Notes under the pieces: model-generated
Told to the model about the DNA's origin: nothing
What the model saw: the letters and a program-made list of their open reading frames with translations, nothing else
Databases searched by the model: none
In this document: piece after piece, positions 1 to 9,451 of the stretch
Numbering within the stretch: position 1 is the first letter of the stretch
Layout of the letters: every line of letters starts with the position of its first letter
Origin: Escherichia phage BME3
Strand: one strand, 5' to 3'
Sequence record: PP239276.1
Length of the DNA stretch: 64,000 bases
Position numbers and translations under genes: made by a program

Positions 1-1039
1 CATACACAATAGTCTGGAATGTCATAGCTGGAGCATGTTCCTGATCGTGTAGTGTAGGGTTATCATAAATCTTAACCTTTGTCACGCCATCTGTCAGTAA
101 TAGAGCTTTAACAATAGCAGCACGAGTAGCAGCATTAGCTTCATCCATGTTATCATTGAAACGAGAACGGAATTCTGCATCTGTTTCAACATCTGTACCT
201 GGAGAGAACGGATAGAAGTTACCTGTATCTAAAAAGCCTGTAAACGTTGAAGAAATACCTGTAATACTTTCTGTACCTACTGGATTGTAGCCAACGTCTG
301 AACACGTAACTGGAATTTCACTCCATTTTGTACCAATTGCAATAGATGCATAAAATTTTACTGGTGTTACTAGACCTATTGGGTTAACATTATCTTCTGG
401 ATTATAACCCATGTAAACATTACTAGCATCATTCCATACTAAAGCACGATCTGTTGTTGATACGTTAGCTTTAATGAAATTCGTGAGATCTACAATAAAG
501 TTTGTATTGCTAGGACTTAGTGTTTTACTGTTAAGCCCACCATCAATAGCACTTTGAATGTAGAAAGTAATGGAAGTTTCACCAGAAGCTGTTGCGTTTG
601 CTTTAGAAATGGTATATGCTCCAATCTTAGCATTCAACATTGTCGGTGCACTGACATAATATGTCAAATCGTTATCGGCATTAAAATAAACATCTGTGCT
701 TAGTTCATAAGTCCAAGCTGCCTTATTGTTAGATTTAACATAAGCATAACCACTACCAGCAGAAGCAGCTTTACGATAAAAACCTCTTTTAGAGAAGATT
801 TCATCAAGGTAAATACCTTCTGCACCATCTAAGGTTTGGGTATTGTAAACACCTTGCATACCTTCCCAAAGGGTGTAATCTGTATATGCAATAATACGAA
901 ACAGTTGACCAAAGACAGTATCTTCAGATGTAGCTGTATCTGCACCGAAAGTGTTTTTCAATGCTGTCATATAATTATTTAAAATATCATCAAACGTTGG
1001 AATTACAAAACCAGCATCTGTTAAACCATAATCTGCCAT
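1..1039 (-). CDS. baseplate J-like protein, N-terminal part (gene continues beyond window start)
   Basis: Open minus-strand frame from ATG at 1037-1039 to the window edge (MADYGLTDAGFVIPTFDDILNNYMTAL...); TAATG 1-nt overlap with the upstream gene; absent from ORF track because truncated; N-terminal pattern resembles baseplate J/gp6-type proteins. Confidence 0.4.
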   Translation of the reverse strand, partial: MADYGLTDAGFVIPTFDDILNNYMTALKNTFGADTATSEDTVFGQLFRIIAYTDYTLWEGMQGVYNTQTLDGAEGIYLDEIFSKRGFYRKAASAGSGYAYVKSNNKAAWTYELSTDVYFNADNDLTYYVSAPTMLNAKIGAYTISKANATASGETSITFYIQSAIDGGLNSKTLSPSNTNFIVDLTNFIKANVSTTDRALVWNDASNVYMGYNPEDNVNPIGLVTPVKFYASIAIGTKWSEIPVTCSDVGYNPVGTESITGISSTFTGFLDTGNFYPFSPGTDVETDAEFRSRFNDNMDEANAATRAAIVKALLLTDGVTKVKIYDNPTLHDQEHAPAMTFQTIVY

Positions 1040-1284
1040 TAGTTATCCTCCTTATCAGGGGCAGGTGATCTGCCCCAACGTAAATCTATTAAATTCTTCA
1101 TTAGTCTGGATGGTGTGATCATAAAAACAAAAGCCCAGCCCATCCATTCAGGAATTTCTTTATCAATTCCCAAATAAATAAACATACTGGACATAACAAT
1201 CATACCAATAGCATTCCAAACTTTAGTAGAACTGACTTTATTATCAGGATATGTACAAAACATACCTATTAAAAATTTTCTCAT
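1039..1284 (-). CDS. small membrane protein (two hydrophobic helices)
   Basis: 81-aa ORF with segments AIGMIVMSSMFIYLGI and WMGWAFVFMI; translationally coupled to neighbours. Confidence 0.4.
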   Translation of the reverse strand: MRKFLIGMFCTYPDNKVSSTKVWNAIGMIVMSSMFIYLGIDKEIPEWMGWAFVFMITPSRLMKNLIDLRWGRSPAPDKEDN

Positions 1285-1589
1285 GGTGCGTTCTCATTAC
1301 TTTTTAAATCACGATATACAGCTAATTCCCCAAGGTCTACAGAACCCGCTGAATGCACAAGTACAGCAGCACTAAGACTAATGGCAGTAGTACCTGGGGC
1401 AATATCAGCAGGTAGGGAATACGCCCTTTGCGTCTCCTTGTCATAGATAACCTTATACCCACCCAAATCCACACCAACTGAGAAGTAAACAACCTCAGAT
1501 TGTTTAACTCCAAAGTGACGGGCTACTGCTTGTTTATTGGTTAAGATTCCGGTTGAACCTTTACCACCTTGGGAGAACATTTCGTTCAT
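1281..1589 (-). CDS. hypothetical protein
   Basis: 102-aa ORF, 4-nt overlap with downstream gene. Confidence 0.4.
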   Translation of the reverse strand: MNEMFSQGGKGSTGILTNKQAVARHFGVKQSEVVYFSVGVDLGGYKVIYDKETQRAYSLPADIAPGTTAISLSAAVLVHSAGSVDLGELAVYRDLKSNENAP

Positions 1590-1607
1590 AACAACCTGTT
1601 TATTTTT

Positions 1608-1632
1608 CTAAAAAACCCCGCCAAAGCGGGGG
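1608..1632 (-). terminator. rho-independent terminator after tailspike gene
   Basis: GC hairpin CCCCGC-caaa-GCGGGG followed on the minus strand by TTTTTT, directly after the stop at 1639. Confidence 0.5.
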
Positions 1633-1638
1633 TTAGTT

Positions 1639-3297
1639 TTACACGTAAGCACTCTCGAACTTACAGAACCAAGTCGTTCCTTCATCAGTTGTTGACAACC
1701 TAAAAACTTGTGTTCCAGCTGCTGTCAAAGATGGGGTACTGCTTGCTAATTTAACATTTTCACCAAATGTTATTGTTTTAGATGTTGTTGAATAGACAGC
1801 CAAAAGAACCTCAACATAACCAGTTAGTGTATTTGTTAATACTGCTGGAGTTATTGTTACATCCCCTGTAACTGTAGCTGCGATGTAAGATGCGTCTGAA
1901 AAGTCAGGCGCATAACTTGCTGTTGGCGTCTCGAACTTTGTACTTCTTACCAATACAGGAACTCCAACATTTTTCCTGAAAATTGTACTATTGCAAACCA
2001 TATCATACTCTATACCAACAAAATTCTTAGCTGCGAGTATGTTAGTAAATGTCTGATCCACAGAGTAAATATGAGTTATCAGCCTTGCCACCCATGCTGG
2101 TGAGTTTGAGTTTTCACACTCAATGAATGAGCAATTGCTACTGCCAACGGCGAATGGCATTAGTGATGCCGCATATGCAGATAACCCTGCGTCATTAAAC
2201 GCATTCATATTCACAAACGTCTGGCATTGAGAGAACGTATTACCGGTGGCTCCACCATCAATAAAAAAGCCAATCCCGCCGTTAATATAACCATCTAAAG
2301 CATCCAAATTTGCTTTCGTATAATCCCATTTTGACGGTGAATCAGCAAAGCACTGATTGAAGGAATTGTTTATTGAGTTCTGTACAACAAAGCAGCATTT
2401 CATCCTTGAGTTCTGGTCAGTGACTGTATCGTCATACATGCCCCAGTTGTGCACCTTACTAATTCTGTTATTGCCACCACCACGAACCCAGGTACCAAAT
2501 CGGAAATAACGACCTTCACCCATGCTAACCTGATGATCGCTACCTTCAACAATGTGGGCTGTGCAGAGCGGATTGGTTGGTTTTAATACACCAACAGCAT
2601 AAAACTTCAATAGGTGCACACCCATGCCGCCAGCAATATGGATGCCATGACCATCAACGTTGGCTACGTAAATGCCATCTAACTTGTTAGCATAGCCATC
2701 GGATATCTTAAACCCATTAACAGTTTTTGCACGGGCATCAATTAATAAGTTGCTGATATGCCCAGCGTATTGATTACCCATCCCTTTATCGCATTTAACA
2801 GCATAGCCAGAGGAGTCTGCGGCGAAGTCGTCGGTGAGGTACACCCCACCGAAACCAGCATCAATGCTAACATCTCCGTGAATGTGCAGTGTCGTACTGA
2901 TAGGATATTTCTTCCCATTCAGCCTGATAACTTTGCTTACAGTGTTAGGTTGTAGCCAGTCAGGATGGTTAGCAGCACTACTTGGTGCATGTTCTAAACC
3001 TGTTAAAGCTGCCGCAGCATCAATCGCATCCTGTAATGATGGATACATATCCGGGTTGACATTTATAATTTTCTTAAGCGCATTGCCAACAGTACCAGTT
3101 TCGTAATCAATTGACTTATCAAAACCTGAAAAACCTGCTCCATCTGTATCTTTCAACTGGGTGGCTAAAACCACCCCAGTGTCAGTAAGAAAGTTGGAAA
3201 CTGTGCTTTTAACAGTCTTATCAGGTTGGTCTAAAACCAGGTAATCAGAACCATTAACTTTTGATGTTTCGGGTAAATTAGTAATTGTAGTTGACAT
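1639..3297 (-). CDS. tailspike / tail fibre protein with beta-helix-like repeats (possible depolymerase)
   Basis: 552-aa ORF; Gly/Asn/Asp-rich repetitive middle region (HIHGDVSIDAGFGGVYL, GHGIHIAGGMGVH) typical of right-handed beta-helix tailspikes. Confidence 0.5.
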   Translation of the reverse strand: MSTTITNLPETSKVNGSDYLVLDQPDKTVKSTVSNFLTDTGVVLATQLKDTDGAGFSGFDKSIDYETGTVGNALKKIINVNPDMYPSLQDAIDAAAALTGLEHAPSSAANHPDWLQPNTVSKVIRLNGKKYPISTTLHIHGDVSIDAGFGGVYLTDDFAADSSGYAVKCDKGMGNQYAGHISNLLIDARAKTVNGFKISDGYANKLDGIYVANVDGHGIHIAGGMGVHLLKFYAVGVLKPTNPLCTAHIVEGSDHQVSMGEGRYFRFGTWVRGGGNNRISKVHNWGMYDDTVTDQNSRMKCCFVVQNSINNSFNQCFADSPSKWDYTKANLDALDGYINGGIGFFIDGGATGNTFSQCQTFVNMNAFNDAGLSAYAASLMPFAVGSSNCSFIECENSNSPAWVARLITHIYSVDQTFTNILAAKNFVGIEYDMVCNSTIFRKNVGVPVLVRSTKFETPTASYAPDFSDASYIAATVTGDVTITPAVLTNTLTGYVEVLLAVYSTTSKTITFGENVKLASSTPSLTAAGTQVFRLSTTDEGTTWFCKFESAYV

Positions 3298-3305
3298 TTT
3301 TACTC

Positions 3306-5465
3306 CTATATATAAAATTTTTGTGTTGTTACTAAATCTTCTCCAGATTTAGTGGCTAATGTAATTCCACTTATAGTGGCAATCTCAACATTTACCTGTT
3401 TAAGAGTGATATCTTGCAAGTAGCAATTCAAAGGCACATTACCCATATAAAACACTTGGGATTTTGAATTAAGAACAGTTATTGAATCATGCATTATTTG
3501 TGGGTAAGCCCATATGTATTGATATAAACCAACAAACTTCTGGTCATTCAATACAATATTGCCTATAATCATTTTCCACAAATATGTTCTATAGTTTGAT
3601 TCAGGATCAAAGCCATATAATGGTGCTAGAGTTGCATCTGGAACAAACCCTGCAAGATAATGTATCTTATCGTAACTAAAACCTAGTTGCTCATTAGGTA
3701 TTGTGATAGCGTCGAAAGATTTTTCCATCTTACCTTCCAACAACCAGTCATAACATTCTGAACAATAAAAGTCAAAGTTCTCTGGGATATAATAATCTTT
3801 AGGGAAGTTAACAAACTCCATCATACCATTACCCAAAATGGATGGCACAAATGGTAACAATGTAACTTTAGCTCCAGGATATGCTAATCTGGTATCTGTT
3901 GCAAATTTAGCAACACGCAGTCCTAATGTTTTAGATAGGAATGCATAATATTCATCATATGGTGTACCAGTTTTATAATTTTTAACTGTACCAACATCTT
4001 GTGCATACAATCCAGTTTCATTATTAAATGCAACTTTGGTTGCATAATCATAAATACACGGCAGATTGGTAGCTGTGTTATACCACCACCACGGTTCACC
4101 AACCTGAATAATAACCGGAAGATCATTAGCAGCGGATATAGAAGCTATCTTATTTATTACACCTTGTAAATAATTCATCCCTTCATCAATTGAAGGAGAT
4201 AAAACATAACTTGGTGGCTCATAACCTGTAGCAGCCAGATCATCATTCCAAGTATGTTGTACCCATTCCACAGGACACACTGTACTCATAATTTCAAAAC
4301 TTAAGGAGTTCATTACTGTGTAGCCCATAGCTTTTGCATTAGCGTGGAAATTATCAAACCAGGCTTCTGTTGCTGGGTTTAAATATTCTGTTCTGTTCAA
4401 AGCCCATTTATTAGAACCAGCATCCCAACTAAATTGATAATAGTGTGACATACCATTATAATGGTTAATCATATCCCTATAACCTAATCTATAGGTGTTG
4501 GAAATAACTCGCTCTGGGGTCAGGTTATACATATCATCATAAGATGTGCACATTCTTATGGTGTGTGCTGGAACATTTAAATTACCCATATTCATCATAC
4601 TGTAACCAGTATCAGGCTCTAGTATGGTAAACTTAAAGGAAAGATCCATATTGTCTACAGGTATAACATCTTCAATTTCTTGATACCTTGCGGAGATCAA
4701 GGAGAAGAACATGTTATCTATCTGTGTAGTGTCAACAACAATATCATTTTCTGGCCCAGATTTTAAATTTGAGAAATCTAATTTGATTATTGCTGTTTTA
4801 CCGTCCTCTGAAACTTCTTCTGCATAAAAGTTTAGAGATACATAATGAACTGTTTCATCCTTCAGTGTCACTGTTAAGGATGGCAATAATTTTTCTTCTT
4901 TTAATCCAGGAACACCTTGACTAAGTTCCATTTTAAACCAAAGTTTCTCTTTACTTAAGTCAGAATGTTCTTGGTAGCCTAATCCTTTGTGATCATATTT
5001 ATCGTAAGTTGACCAAATAATCCCAGCAAGACCAGCCACTGTCCTATTAACCATTCTTGCTGTGAAAGAATCACCATTAGAGATAATAGAACAACTTTCT
5101 GTTGCTTGAGAATCTATTGTCCAAAACTTAGGATCAAACATTCTAGACTTCACAACAGGCCAAGTTAGCGGGGTCGTATTCGATTGATTAGTCGTAATAA
5201 CACAACGAATTTCTTCATTGATCATCATGTTATTTTGACTTATGCTAGTAATCTCAAGAGTAAAATAAAGATCTAAAGAGTTTGCCGGACGTTCATATAC
5301 ATCAACCACTACAGTAGCAGAATCTGCATCAGAAGGGAACGTTACTGTTCCCTGTTTAGCTACATAATCTCTACCAGCGACCGCCGTTCCATCGACGGTC
5401 TTATAGCTGAATGAACTGGCATTTACTCTCGTATTTCGAGTTACAGTAAAAATAGCCTGTTTCAT
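3306..5465 (-). CDS. tail fibre / receptor-binding protein (putative)
   Basis: 719-aa ORF in the tail-fibre block, Trp/Tyr/Asn-rich. Confidence 0.4.
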   Translation of the reverse strand: MKQAIFTVTRNTRVNASSFSYKTVDGTAVAGRDYVAKQGTVTFPSDADSATVVVDVYERPANSLDLYFTLEITSISQNNMMINEEIRCVITTNQSNTTPLTWPVVKSRMFDPKFWTIDSQATESCSIISNGDSFTARMVNRTVAGLAGIIWSTYDKYDHKGLGYQEHSDLSKEKLWFKMELSQGVPGLKEEKLLPSLTVTLKDETVHYVSLNFYAEEVSEDGKTAIIKLDFSNLKSGPENDIVVDTTQIDNMFFSLISARYQEIEDVIPVDNMDLSFKFTILEPDTGYSMMNMGNLNVPAHTIRMCTSYDDMYNLTPERVISNTYRLGYRDMINHYNGMSHYYQFSWDAGSNKWALNRTEYLNPATEAWFDNFHANAKAMGYTVMNSLSFEIMSTVCPVEWVQHTWNDDLAATGYEPPSYVLSPSIDEGMNYLQGVINKIASISAANDLPVIIQVGEPWWWYNTATNLPCIYDYATKVAFNNETGLYAQDVGTVKNYKTGTPYDEYYAFLSKTLGLRVAKFATDTRLAYPGAKVTLLPFVPSILGNGMMEFVNFPKDYYIPENFDFYCSECYDWLLEGKMEKSFDAITIPNEQLGFSYDKIHYLAGFVPDATLAPLYGFDPESNYRTYLWKMIIGNIVLNDQKFVGLYQYIWAYPQIMHDSITVLNSKSQVFYMGNVPLNCYLQDITLKQVNVEIATISGITLATKSGEDLVTTQKFYI

Positions 5466-5473
5466 TATTTTCC

Positions 5474-8350
5474 TTATTTGGTTACATCAACACTAATATC
5501 ATTCATAGTTAGAACAGTTAGTGTTGGTATGTTACTATTATCCAAAATTGGTAAAGCGTTTTGAGGGTTTAGTTTACGATACAAGGCATATAAACCAAAA
5601 CCACGTAATAGTTCTCCAGCATGGAAACCAAAGAACATTCCGTTATCTGAATCTGGGCGTGGTGCAACACTCCAGGAACCATTCATCGGATGGTTAGGGG
5701 AGAGCACAATATAGTTTTGCTGAATCAGATCAAAACATCTGTCTGCTACAATACCAATGTTTGGAATTTGTGAATCATAACCTGCCAAACCCATGATTGA
5801 ACAACCAGCCATAAACAGTGCAGACATATGACTAGTAAAGTCATCTATAGGTGCAAGAACTGTACCATCTGGGTTAAAGATAGTTGGTGTTCTTCCGTCA
5901 TTATTGTCTTGGAACCATTTAAGATAGTTGATCCAATTTTTACAAACTGTTACTAGTTTTTCAGGAGGTGTTTCTCCTCTTTGTACAAGTTCGTATACAG
6001 CATGACAAGCACAGTAGAATGCACGAGCTTCATAACCATCCCACGCTTTTTCATTCCAGTGTTTCATAGTAAACGTATTAGGTTCACCGTATTTTCTTGC
6101 ATCCCAACGATCCCACACATATGCTTGTGCCATAGGCCCAGGCATCACAGGATCAAACGTGTTATAAAACCACATTTGAGCATCATACAAGAAATCAATA
6201 CTGTTGTTTAAACGTGTCCAATCAATATCCCTACCTGCGAAACAGTATAAGGAAGGATACTGGTATCCTGGGTATGGAATACCACGCCATCCATCGTATA
6301 ATGCAGTGTTTGGGTCACTGATATTAGAGAATGGAATTATTCCTGGTGTGTAATTAAGACTATTTAACTTATAGTCAATAATAGTACAATCACCTAACTT
6401 AGCAGTATGAGGACTTGAAGCCTGTACAGTAATACGGAAGTACATGGTATAATCATCACCAGAAGATGACGAATATCTTTCAGGTACATCGTTAATACAA
6501 TAGAAATCTATTGTTCCTGTTAAACCATTGACAGGAGCCGTATCAAGAACTAAATTTACCTGATCTACCGCAGTAAGATTTATGGCTGAAGGTTTAGGAT
6601 CTGTATCTGGATGATTAGGCTGGTAAGCACTTAACTTAAAATCAGAAGCTGATAAAGTCTTCGTGCTCCATGCCCCTTGCGTTTTAGGCAGCATAGCCCA
6701 CCATCTCCAACCTTGAGCATCCGTGATAGTCATGTTAAAGTCATCTTCATATGTTCTATATGTGATAGACTTAACATTAGCTTTTGATGTAGGAGTTAAC
6801 CAAAAACCAACAGTGATACCACCATCCGTATCCATTGATGCAGTAACAATCTGGTCATTATTAGTTCCAGCAATACCTGTTACATACTTATATTGTACCA
6901 CAGTATTGTCACCCCAGTCAACAATAATTCGCGGGTCTGCTATAATATATGTTCCACCATTCGGAGGGGTGCTTCTCATAAAGCTGGATAGTGGAATATC
7001 CATGCTTGTCATATTAGCTGTACCCAGTGGTAAGCCACAACGGTAAGTTACTGTGTTATTTTCATCTTTGGTCTTACTTAATTCCAACTCTGGACGGAAA
7101 AGAATACCATGTCCTGCGTCATCTACACCTTGAAACTGAACTCGTAACTTAGAGTTCTGATCAACTTTAAACCAAATGGCTTGCTGTTCTAATGTTGTTT
7201 GAGCAGCAACATCTTGTCTAATAACAATATAACCTAAAGTATCTCTTGAATATTTAGGTATTGCTGTAGATGGATACGAATAATCGTAAGAGATGCCATC
7301 TGTAAACGGAATAGTTGCATATGTAGATTTACGGAAGAATTTATCAAACATATCAATGTTTGAGTAATCTTGACACACTAACAGTGAAGACTGCCAGCAT
7401 AGCCAATATTTTCTTTCTCCTGTAATTTGGTACATCAGGTAATTAGCATCACACCACCAAGTTTCGGCATCTGACGCATTATCCTGAAAGCCCATTTCTA
7501 CCGGAACGTTAACTGGTCTGTTATGCCACATAGTGTTACGCTCCATTAAATAACCGCCGTGTTCAACAGGGTTACAAGTCGCGTAGTTAAATTTATATGT
7601 ACCGTTTACAGAAGTATTTTTTAGTTGAACTGTTCCGTATTGAGATGTTGGAAAACCTTCTTCTAAGATATTTCCATCCCAATCAACTTTACGTCCTAGA
7701 CGATCAATGATCCAATCAACGTCCCATTGATCTCCATTCTTAGACCAATCTGTTGTTCCATCTGCATTAACAGCATATACTGTAGCGTTTACAGAGTTCC
7801 ATCCTAGATTACCATTAAAAGCAAACCATGCTTTGTCAAGGTATTCTCCCCAATGAGGAGCACCATGAGGAATAACTGTTCTACCGTTAGTCCACGTCAT
7901 TAAGCTACCCTTAAAACCTCCGTGTGTAGGGTAGCCATCATCTGTAAGAGGATAGTGTGCAAGACGTGGTTCTTTACCGTTAATAATCCAGTTAGGGCGA
8001 TATTTTGCTGGCGGATCTGGGATAGGTTGACCACCAAAGAAGTAATCTATATAGGCTTGCCAATATTTTTTAGCAGAGTCTAAATACTTTGTATCGCCGG
8101 AAGCTAGGTATGCATAAGCGCAACCAAGAATAAGCACGGATTGACCTTCTGTTGTAGCATCCCCGTTTGGTTGCCCTTCTTGAGCAGTCCAGTTTATAAA
8201 GTGTCTGTTATTAGCTAGAACGTTTTGTGGGTTTAATACATAGTGTTGCACTGTAGGATCTACAGTTAAACCTGTATTACGATCTAAGAACTGAATATGT
8301 CCATCGATCAGTTGAAAAACATTGTCAATTCTGTGCTTAATTCTTGACAT
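5474..8350 (-). CDS. large tail-associated protein, possible glycoside-hydrolase-like domain
   Basis: 958-aa ORF, Trp-rich, N-terminal region GCAYAYLASGDTKYLDSAKKYW; adjacent to baseplate genes. Confidence 0.4.
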   Translation of the reverse strand: MSRIKHRIDNVFQLIDGHIQFLDRNTGLTVDPTVQHYVLNPQNVLANNRHFINWTAQEGQPNGDATTEGQSVLILGCAYAYLASGDTKYLDSAKKYWQAYIDYFFGGQPIPDPPAKYRPNWIINGKEPRLAHYPLTDDGYPTHGGFKGSLMTWTNGRTVIPHGAPHWGEYLDKAWFAFNGNLGWNSVNATVYAVNADGTTDWSKNGDQWDVDWIIDRLGRKVDWDGNILEEGFPTSQYGTVQLKNTSVNGTYKFNYATCNPVEHGGYLMERNTMWHNRPVNVPVEMGFQDNASDAETWWCDANYLMYQITGERKYWLCWQSSLLVCQDYSNIDMFDKFFRKSTYATIPFTDGISYDYSYPSTAIPKYSRDTLGYIVIRQDVAAQTTLEQQAIWFKVDQNSKLRVQFQGVDDAGHGILFRPELELSKTKDENNTVTYRCGLPLGTANMTSMDIPLSSFMRSTPPNGGTYIIADPRIIVDWGDNTVVQYKYVTGIAGTNNDQIVTASMDTDGGITVGFWLTPTSKANVKSITYRTYEDDFNMTITDAQGWRWWAMLPKTQGAWSTKTLSASDFKLSAYQPNHPDTDPKPSAINLTAVDQVNLVLDTAPVNGLTGTIDFYCINDVPERYSSSSGDDYTMYFRITVQASSPHTAKLGDCTIIDYKLNSLNYTPGIIPFSNISDPNTALYDGWRGIPYPGYQYPSLYCFAGRDIDWTRLNNSIDFLYDAQMWFYNTFDPVMPGPMAQAYVWDRWDARKYGEPNTFTMKHWNEKAWDGYEARAFYCACHAVYELVQRGETPPEKLVTVCKNWINYLKWFQDNNDGRTPTIFNPDGTVLAPIDDFTSHMSALFMAGCSIMGLAGYDSQIPNIGIVADRCFDLIQQNYIVLSPNHPMNGSWSVAPRPDSDNGMFFGFHAGELLRGFGLYALYRKLNPQNALPILDNSNIPTLTVLTMNDISVDVTK

Positions 8351-8823
8351 TAAATCACTCCTGCCATCACTAAACTACCTATCCAGGTAGCTCCATTATC
8401 ATAACTAACAAATTCAAAAATATCTGTAGCTCCCTGTTTATAACTCAAAACAGGAGCGCGACCAAAACTCCATTTAACAGATTGAGGCCACGTTACTTTA
8501 TTTGCTCCACTGCCTTGACGTAGGGATAGAGTAAAGTTTTGAACAATGTTAGTTGTAACTGGAACATTACTAAATGAAATACTGCAAGTTGGACTAGATA
8601 AAGTGGCAGAGAAATACTCTGCCGTGCTAATATCTAAAGCTAGGGTATTTGTAACAGTACCCCTTGCAGAAAGACGATTTCGTGTAACACCAGCACCCGC
8701 AAGAAGAACACGTAATGATGTTTTCTTAGTGATGCCTGATTGATCTGTTACAAAATAATCTGTGTCTGAAACAGATGTTGTTACAGGTAGATCAGACACC
8801 TTGATTGTAGTTAAATCAGCCAT
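8350..8823 (-). CDS. structural protein (tail/baseplate-associated)
   Basis: 157-aa ORF, overlaps neighbours by 1-8 nt. Confidence 0.35.
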   Translation of the reverse strand: MADLTTIKVSDLPVTTSVSDTDYFVTDQSGITKKTSLRVLLAGAGVTRNRLSARGTVTNTLALDISTAEYFSATLSSPTCSISFSNVPVTTNIVQNFTLSLRQGSGANKVTWPQSVKWSFGRAPVLSYKQGATDIFEFVSYDNGATWIGSLVMAGVI

Positions 8824-9451
8824 TATTATTTGTAGCTCCCATTGTTGCTGTTATAGCATAGTTGTAATTGGTTGCAAGACCTTTATTGGCTTCGTTAACA
8901 AGGTATTTTTCAAGCAATGCCTCGTTAGACCACTCATTCCACCAAGTAGAATAAGTATCTTTAGGAAGACCAACAATGTTAATAAAGCGATAGAGTCTAT
9001 TTGCAGATTCAACAATTTCAAATGCTTCACAAGTGATTGCTGCATTATCGTCACCAGCTTCTGGATAGATATATTCTTCAGACGGCTGTGTACTGAATAG
9101 AGCACTAACAACTTGTTCACCAACTGTAACAGTAACGTTCATTGAGTAATACCTATCATCTCTATCATAAGAGGATGTGTAGGAATTAATATTATCTATA
9201 TAAACATTACTTGCGATAGTTGATAAGAAAATGCGATCAACAATCTCTTTCTTCTTGGCAACACCAATAATCTCTTGCAGATATGGAACCCCAAAATTAG
9301 AATTGAGGAACCATTCTCCACGGAAAGTTCTAAGTGTTATTCCAAGCGTCTGTGCTGCAATTTCACTTTTAGTTGTGGTTAGTGTTAAATCACCATCCAC
9401 CATTACTAAATCGTTAGAACCATCAAGTTTTAAATCAAATGGTATTCCCAT
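8816..9451 (-). CDS. baseplate wedge protein, GpW/gp25-like N-terminal domain
   Basis: 211-aa ORF; TLRTFRGEWFLNSNFGVPY resembles the R-G-x-x-F...FG signature of gp25/GpW-type proteins. Confidence 0.4.
   Translation of the reverse strand: MGIPFDLKLDGSNDLVMVDGDLTLTTTKSEIAAQTLGITLRTFRGEWFLNSNFGVPYLQEIIGVAKKKEIVDRIFLSTIASNVYIDNINSYTSSYDRDDRYYSMNVTVTVGEQVVSALFSTQPSEEYIYPEAGDDNAAITCEAFEIVESANRLYRFINIVGLPKDTYSTWWNEWSNEALLEKYLVNEANKGLATNYNYAITATMGATNNNG

Follow-up and report, generated by a model that had tools for sequence, protein, structure and literature searches.

Three very large genes lie one after another among the baseplate genes of Escherichia phage BME3, and the question they raise is whether all three encode tail fibres or tailspikes, or whether proteins of different kinds share in recognition of the host. 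The window analysed here is a stretch of 64,000 nucleotides (nt) of BME3 DNA (sequence record PP239276.1). A first-pass annotation of this sequence had described three consecutive open reading frames (ORFs) of 552, 719 and 958 amino acids (aa) as tail-fibre or tailspike-type proteins situated between baseplate genes, and had taken them to suggest a complex or broad host-recognition apparatus. The ORFs are exactly where they had been placed, back-to-back on the minus strand at 1639-3297 (552 aa), 3306-5465 (719 aa) and 5474-8350 (958 aa), and they correspond to block gp141-gp142-gp143 of the "multivalent adsorption apparatus" known from phi92. In the reading preferred here, to which a probability of about three in four is attached, this block combines a conserved glycosidase-like gp141, an NGR-recognising gp142 and an exchangeable beta-helix tailspike.

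The description of phi92 gp141-gp142-gp143 as a multivalent adsorption apparatus reportedly goes back to Schwarzer et al. in 2012. The phage, the apparatus and the recombination mechanism considered below are all already known from published work. BME3 is a published isolate whose authors describe a phi92-type "Swiss army knife" apparatus and regard the 552-aa protein, together with a neighbouring 102-aa ORF, as a "tail spike" that is a non-conserved receptor-binding protein without homology to endosialidases (PMC12210895). Broad lysis ranges have been reported both for BME3 and for its relatives Bas60-62 (PMC12210895, PMC11990801), which together with the phi92-type block agrees with the complex, broad apparatus suggested from the sequence.

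A phi92-type block among the baseplate genes

The first 12 kb of the window are ~98% identical at the nucleotide level to genomes of Justusliebigvirus (phi92-like phages of the Stephanstirmvirinae), with the exception of ~1.5 kb. Gene-by-gene comparison with phi92 identifies the 336-aa product as the gp137 hub, the 245-aa product as the central spike and the 211-aa product as gp139, whose role is that of sheath initiator (PMC13450770). The products of 157, 958 and 719 aa follow as gp140, gp141 and gp142; the 552-aa protein occupies the gp143 slot, and an 81-aa gp144 and then the gp145 wedge protein, which is cut by the start of the window, complete the series. The order of the Justusliebigvirus locus (hub, central spike, gp139, gp140, gp141, gp142, variable spike, gp144, gp145 wedge) is thus matched throughout, and the placement of the three genes between baseplate genes is borne out both by synteny with phi92 and by the roles assigned in PMC13450770. 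The DNA that carries the gp141 and gp142 genes is 98.4% identical to that of phi92.

Gaps of 8 nt separate the three ORFs, a sequence resembling a ribosome-binding site (RBS), AGGA or AGGAG, stands before each of them, and between the start of the 958-aa ORF and the stop of the 157-aa ORF upstream there is an overlap of 1 nt. A chance origin is excluded because ORFs of such lengths lie in DNA of 38% guanine plus cytosine (GC), and near-identical homologues of all three proteins are found in dozens of phage genomes. An exact-sequence look-up of four proteins, the three large ones among them, found every one, and the three large ones are identical to proteins recorded for BME3. The plus-strand ORFs of the three-gene region are short and unsupported, and searches of the region for tRNAs, Rfam families and tandem repeats found none. 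The genes from gp139 through gp140, gp141 and gp142 to the tailspike would be transcribed as a single late operon ending at the terminator described below.

The gp142 homologue and the sheath module of N4

The 719-aa protein (3306-5465, minus strand), assigned from Pfam and PDB matches and from the literature, is 97.5-99.0% identical to its orthologues in other Justusliebigvirus genomes. It begins with a Calx-beta domain at aa 4-80 (nt 5226-5456; Pfam E 1.7e-9), followed by NCTSP_N at aa 109-285 (nt 4611-5141; E 7.9e-21, 74.6 bits) and TIM-barrel_NCTSP at aa 299-660 (nt 3486-4571; E 1.1e-81, 275 bits), the Pfam gathering cut-off for the latter two being 27 bits. In the PDB it matched N4 gp64 (9lc0_M, 1.4e-27, or 2.4e-87 in a profile search) and N4 gp65. 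A 'poly-GlcNAc deacetylase' label was also considered for this protein and was rejected, since sequence searches lent it no support and the PDB profile search returned N4 gp64/gp65 and distal tail proteins of gene transfer agents (GTAs) only.

N4 gp64 and gp65 form a six-fold "non-contractile sheath" heterodimer that is also the receptor-binding protein (PMC13434306). In AlfredRasser, a phage of the N4 species, the Pfam barrel model is split between the two proteins, gp65 matching model positions 4-46 with its residues 374-416 and gp64 matching positions 60-347 with its residues 109-407; the two genes lie at 1502-5650 and 5683-6936 of the locus examined (L010). In gp142 the same barrel is contiguous. 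As the split pieces are complementary to one another and together correspond to the contiguous barrel, the homology between gp142 and the N4 proteins spans the whole module, which would argue for common descent over the convergence proposed in a 2026 preprint. The division of the barrel also suggests that a split or interrupted barrel may hold the N4 sheath heterodimer together. Judged from its sequence, the 719-aa protein is the one-chain counterpart of the sheath module formed in N4 by the N-terminus of gp65 and by gp64, and not a fibre.

The assignment of gp142 to NGR recognition comes from the literature, where it is supported by genetics and by comparative genomics. Sellner et al. found in 2021 that phi92-like phages need nfrB and wecB, i.e. 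the NGR glycan (PMC8669472), and in the same year Maffei et al. noted both the homology to gp64 and the common dependence on wecB (PMC8594841). NGR dependence has been shown for the close relatives Bas60-62 (PMC11990801). Most recently, phi92 gp142 was named as an NGR receptor-binding protein, and GMSHY was given as a perfectly conserved k-mer that predicts NGR specificity (preprint, bioRxiv 10.64898/2026.04.02.716166). The 719-aa protein has this motif at aa 338-342 (4440-4454, minus strand), and it is aligned in N4 gp65 too. gp142 would then recognise the NGR exopolysaccharide made by NfrA/NfrB/WecB, and the phage would therefore bypass the O-antigen.

Homologues of gp142 that share 29-76% identity were compared, and D310, D311, E391, E457 (in QxGEPWWW), D473, D565 and E570 (in ExYDW) are invariant down to 29% identity; E457 and E570 are conserved in N4 gp64 also. 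From their positions, the spacing of E457 and E570 appears to fit strands beta-4 and beta-7 of a 4/7-type glycosidase. These two invariant glutamates make processing of a glycan by gp142 plausible, and the protein is regarded as a candidate binder, possibly a hydrolase, of the NGR glycan.

The closest known system is accordingly the gp65/gp64 pair of N4 (PDB 9LC0, 9YF4; PF23844, PF23845), which has in common with gp142 the NCTSP_N and TIM-barrel domains, GMSHY and the GEPWWW and ExYDW motifs, and NGR dependence is common to the N4 group and the phi92-like group. The differences lie in architecture. gp142 is one chain, would sit on the baseplate of a contractile tail and carries a Calx-beta domain in front, whereas N4 has a two-piece module that forms a six-fold sheath round a short tail. 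The name 'non-contractile tail sheath' is not transferable to gp142 because the tail here is contractile.

The combination of NCTSP_N and TIM-barrel was also observed to be very common in prophages of Acinetobacter, where it is annotated as 'phage capsid protein', probably a misnomer, and it occurs in E. coli prophages too. In alphaproteobacterial elements the module is fused to distal tail proteins of the GTA type (PF09343).

The gp141 homologue, a predicted alpha/alpha toroid

The 958-aa protein (5474-8350, minus strand) is 99.5% identical to phi92 gp141. With 3.4% tryptophan it is the Trp-rich member of the three, and it is here that the Trp-rich, hydrolase-like region noticed in the first-pass annotation is found. 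Its AlphaFold2 (AF2) model, built with 38 homologues, is confident (mean predicted local distance difference test score, pLDDT, 85.8; predicted template modelling score, pTM, 0.81). In it, ten to eleven long helices arranged in hairpins (67-104, 293-329 and 711-927) appear to form an alpha/alpha toroid, the core of which is broken by a beta-rich insert (~122-290) and by two beta-sandwiches (~354-660) resembling carbohydrate-binding modules (CBMs), the beta-rich inserts amounting to ~540 residues. Foldseek matched the model with a probability of 1.0 to the GH48 cellulases 1g9j and 4xwn and to CBM11 (1v0a, 6r31); GH116 and a C5-epimerase were matched also, and the viral structures matched were unannotated "tail fiber" proteins. 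Typical 'xxTGDxKYLxxA' hairpin motifs are present in the sequence, and hhalign of the gp141 profile with N4-type gp65, which carries a 'mannase' domain annotation, found no relation. The likeness is to GH48/GH8-type glycosidases with a six-hairpin (alpha/alpha)6 fold and CBM11-like modules, which the gp141 model resembles in its helical hairpins, apparently arranged as a toroid, and in its beta-sandwiches; in contrast to these enzymes gp141 belongs to no GH family by sequence and its toroid is interrupted by inserts.

The gp141 family is found in 531 phage records, which include myoviruses, siphoviruses, podoviruses and jumbo phages. Members that are 44-57% identical over ~96% of their length occur in prophages of Enterobacter, E. 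coli, Pseudomonas, Gluconobacter and marine bacteria, an unusual degree of conservation for a host-recognition protein. Many polar and aromatic residues are invariant, including D64, E68, D294, E296, D333, D336, D750 and E913; the candidates for a catalytic role are D64 and E68, where the first barrel helix starts, and D294, E296, D750 and E913. gp141 would probably bind or cut a widely conserved envelope polysaccharide.

Some information on the position of gp141 comes from natural fusions. P2 gpI is fused to the N-terminus of gp141 in a P2-like prophage, and at the other end C-terminal extensions of 490-700 aa, some of them with Gly_rich_2, supply distal domains. In an SU10-like podovirus contig a single chain of 1557 aa consists of a gp141-type part (44% identical) and a gp142-type part (51%), in the order that the genes have here. 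(The loci and proteins concerned are L005, 6691-11364; L008, 8001-11294; P0081 and P0095-P0108.) These fusions suggest a polarity running from the wedge through gp141 to a distal module, such that gp141 would adjoin the baseplate wedge and carry the more distal modules. A wider proposal can be put forward tentatively: that gp141 represents a family of tail-borne alpha/alpha-toroid glycanases not recognised so far and is at the same time the wedge-proximal hub of branched adsorption apparatuses (gpI-type wedge protein, then gp141, then distal module, as in the fusions), that with gp142 it forms the arm or 'fiber II' density of phi92, and that gp142 and N4 gp65/gp64 are homologous.

Two side observations concern the family. 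Its members P0053 and P0120 have the beta-sandwich region duplicated internally. In a lambda-like, siphophage-type prophage of Enterobacter/E. coli (L006, 10001-12823) the gp141 homologue comes just after the head genes and a 560-aa protein; the genes for the tape measure and the tail tip lie well downstream of it, a position that is unusual for the gene of a receptor-binding protein or tail enzyme.

Are gp141 and gp142 enzymes, scaffolds or fibres?

The explanation that competes best with a glycosidase-like role holds that gp141 and gp142 are catalytically dead scaffolds or lectins, binding glycans or tail proteins, and that the tailspike is the sole enzyme of the block. Activity is unreported for N4 gp64/gp65 and for phi92 gp141/gp142 alike, neither gp141 nor gp142 has a sequence match to a characterised hydrolase, and the homologous module of N4 has a structural role as the sheath and gates the tail as a receptor sensor. 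Set against this is the conservation of acidic and aromatic residues across homologues that are only 29-57% identical, which is more than a scaffold needs: in gp141 it extends to all six catalytic candidates named above, and in gp142 to D310, D311, E391, E457, D473, D565 and E570. In the barrel model, which has 348 positions, E457 and E570 come close to positions 159 and 272, approximately those of the acid/base and nucleophile of a 4/7-type enzyme, as reckoned by position arithmetic. A purely non-catalytic role for both proteins is possible and is judged rather unlikely.

A second explanation, that all three proteins are independent trimeric fibres or tailspikes, each a depolymerase for a different capsule or lipopolysaccharide, would agree with database annotations, in which all three are labelled 'lateral tail fiber' or 'tail fiber' and are given glycosidase or deacetylase domains. 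It would also agree with the phi92 literature, where gp141 and gp142 are listed among the tail fibres (PMC10269720). However, gp142 is a member of the sheath family of N4 gp64/gp65, whose N4 members are heterodimers and not trimeric spikes, and in the gp141 model a globular toroid is combined with beta-sandwiches and no fibre or beta-helix region is seen. When the authors of the phi92 cryo-electron microscopy (cryo-EM) study screened all predicted structures for fibre-like shapes, gp141 and gp142 were not listed. Both proteins are, in addition, highly conserved across hosts, unlike serotype-specific depolymerases. That all three should be separate trimeric depolymerases is improbable. The description of the three as fibre or tailspike-type proteins holds for the 552-aa protein, and fails for the 719- and 958-aa proteins, which are globular, enzyme-like multidomain proteins. 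Structure predictions did not show purely structural baseplate folds.

The 552-aa protein, a chimeric tailspike

Only the 552-aa protein is a true tailspike among the three. Its gene (1639-3297, minus strand) stands in the phi92 gp143 (endosialidase) slot and is a mosaic. The first 54 aa of the protein recur with 100% identity at the N-termini of many spikes from Justusliebigvirus and Phapecoctavirus (e.g. PD06, ZCKP1, KKE7M), and spikes that share this anchor have pectate-lyase-like, endosialidase, GDSL esterase, phosphodiesterase, sialidase and other bodies. Similarity to the spikes of relatives stops at ~aa 54. The remainder, aa 44-552, is 95-96% identical to the C-terminal half of a ~992-aa tailspike of the Ackermannviridae, the matching tailspikes being those of Kuttervirus vB_SalM-ps4 (WYA83778.1) and of the Aglimvirinae phage YX22. 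The same body also follows head-binding domains of the P22 type, N-domains of the TSP1/Gp66 type and other anchors, and nine E. coli genomes contain a prophage homologue of the tailspike at ~75% nt identity.

At the DNA level, 1611-3141 is 98.7% identical to vB_SalM-ps4 over 1531 nt and 96.8% identical to YX22, whereas the flanks belong with Justusliebigvirus PaulScherrer (1-1538, 96.5%; 3131-9000, 98.4%). The acquired cassette (1611-3141, minus strand) comprises the receptor-binding body and 28 nt of 3' flank, including the terminator. Directly 3' of the stop codon is a strong, intrinsic terminator-like hairpin, CCCCGC-TTTG-GCGGGG, followed by TTTTTT (1616-1631, minus strand, read from 1631 to 1616), and the downstream mosaic junction lies within it. 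A study by Pas et al. in 2023 described "motif one" and "motif three" as recombination hot spots in Kutterviruses, Justusliebigviruses and Gamaleyaviruses, and both crossovers seen here coincide with the motifs of that study, the terminator hairpin being 'motif three' (PMC10408124). The 552-aa gene is a clean, recent instance of this known mechanism. The comparison with relatives for module swapping that had been recommended thus yielded a Kuttervirus body within Justusliebigvirus flanks; the body would have been acquired recently from the tailspike of a Kuttervirus, through recombination at the motif with which the anchor ends and at the downstream terminator motif.

The Ackermannviridae tailspikes (vB_SalM-ps4; the CBA120 TSP complex) share with the 552-aa gene the linker motif and the downstream terminator. 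In those phages the body makes up the C-terminal half of a protein of ~992 aa, and a branched TSP complex is built by the long N-terminal domains of that protein, whereas here the same body is joined straight to a 53-residue Justusliebigvirus anchor. This genus-specific anchor of ~53 residues would dock the tailspike on the particle. In phi92 the gp143 slot is filled by a 918-aa endosialidase with a chaperone domain, in contrast to the 552-aa, probably beta-helical spike of BME3; window positions 1280-3145, which include the 552-aa gene and the 102-aa ORF, have no match in the phi92 locus, and Pfam found neither the endosialidase beta-propeller and stalk nor the S74 chaperone (PF12217-19, PF13884) in the 552-aa protein. 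The spike presumably binds and cleaves one O-antigen or capsule, and so would replace the K1/K92 endosialidase specificity of phi92.

The fold of the body was approached in several ways. Direct Pfam, NCBIfam and PDB sequence searches with the 552-aa protein found no match, and nothing informative came from comparing a tailspike alignment with single sequences of beta-helix spikes by hhalign. Exhaustive searching with phmmer brought up 41 relatives, 32 of them remote, and over the aligned stretch PF12708 occurs in 15 of these 32 and PF13229 in three. The content of glycine, asparagine and aspartate peaks at 15-17 per 50 residues, and the Gly/Asn/Asp repeats of beta-helix-like character noticed earlier can be traced to this protein, whose AF2 model, though poor, shows regularly spaced, rung-like short strands of the beta-helix type, at 121-268 only, together with a confident C-terminal beta-sandwich (aa ~450-552). 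Some support comes also from Foldseek, which with this model gave weak matches to the Sf6 tailspike and the Pa223 spike. By transitive homology the body is accepted as a pectate-lyase-like beta-helix. The protein would then follow the plan of the P22/Sf6/Det7-type tailspikes (PF12708, PF13229), in which an anchor is followed by a beta-helix and a C-terminal domain, and it differs from them in having no direct Pfam or PDB sequence match of its own.

That the 552-aa protein is a defective recombinant unable to assemble, leaving the slot functionally empty as it is in some relatives (it is empty or truncated in ESCO32 and ESCO9), is very improbable: the lack of a TSP1/Gp66-type N-terminal domain (PF18668), which many spikes in the slot have, and the terminator and orphan N-terminal-domain ORF downstream might be taken to favour it, but the ORF is intact with a good RBS, its anchor is 100% identical to those of full-length spikes, the junction is in frame and on the conserved motif of natural swaps, spikes of 540-541 aa with ~64% anchor identity (P0163, P0175; on contigs of 104-144 kb) also have no PF18668, and the body is 95-96% identical in protein sequence to Ackermannviridae tailspikes of isolated phages.

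Points against the preferred reading

Several observations weigh against the reading of the block as glycosidase-like gp141, NGR-recognising gp142 and beta-helix tailspike, and against the arrangement in the virion proposed with it. For gp141, Pfam, NCBIfam and PDB sequence searches found no match and there is no CAZy or Pfam link by sequence. Isolated sub-regions likewise gave nothing in Pfam or NCBIfam at E<=10, and the best PDB profile match was to GH76 at E=0.068. The whole-chain Foldseek TM-scores are low (0.18-0.38), which is attributed to the splitting of the core by the inserts. The AF2 model of the 552-aa protein is poor (pLDDT 51.7, from a shallow alignment).

The association of gp141 with gp142 is not constant either. 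In Vequintavirus the two genes are non-adjacent and 14 kb apart, and in Seunavirus gp141 is present and gp142 was undetected, so that the idea of an obligatory gp141-gp142 pair was rejected. Finally, the 2026 cryo-EM study of phi92 leaves "fiber II" and the "fiber I" arm unassigned and makes no mention of gp141 or gp142.

Neighbouring genes and other features of the window

Upstream of the block, the 157-aa gp140 homologue (8350-8823, minus strand) is a small fibre-type protein by its matches to the tail fiber families phrog_9017 and phrog_7760 and by synteny with phi92. Over 38 aa its N-terminus shares 37% identity with that of the 552-aa protein, a stretch that forms an adaptor motif, and its C-terminal beta-sandwich aligns with residues 457-544 of the same protein. 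It looks like a tailspike without the beta-helix, and may occupy the same kind of docking site as the tailspike.

Downstream of the tailspike gene is a 102-aa ORF (1281-1589, minus strand) that encodes a stand-alone, anchor-type N-terminal domain of a tailspike. Many PHROG tailspike families match it with their N-termini (e.g. phrog_18484, 1-95/770, 5.5e-46), and another Kuttervirus TSP gene is, at its 5' end, 83% identical in nucleotide sequence to window positions 1316-1641, which span the ORF. PD06, ZCKP1 and other phages carry identical copies; phi92 does not have the ORF. It is located behind the terminator, has a weak RBS and was probably left over, as a hitch-hiker, from the import of an earlier cassette. 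The BME3 authors describe it as the 'first segment' of the spike (PMC12210895). Beyond it lies the 81-aa gp144 homologue (1039-1284, minus strand), which stands upstream of the gp145 wedge gene and was identified from phrog_1322 and from synteny with phi92 and PaulScherrer.

Elsewhere in the window an array of 16 tRNAs is found at 28518-31395 (minus strand), the same count as reported for BME3, and Rfam gave one further tRNA-like match at 30944-31022. GC skew changes from negative to positive at about 34000-36000, which fits a switch in the direction of transcription where the structural module gives way to the remainder of the genome. More than 20 'Campylobacter phage' records with C. jejuni as host (e.g. 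MG065650.1, MG065645.1 and MG065676.1) contain tail genes near-identical to those of Justusliebigvirus or Vequintavirus, and the host labels of these records look doubtful.

Implications

If the tentative proposal on gp141, gp142 and the N4 proteins were true, it would mean that an NGR-recognition device has been shared between myoviruses and podoviruses by common descent or transfer, and did not arise by convergence. The locus itself would be a textbook case of how broad-host-range coliphages combine a conserved 'universal' glycan binder, directed at NGR, with a plug-in, serotype-specific tailspike, and as such it would be of use in host-range prediction and in engineering.

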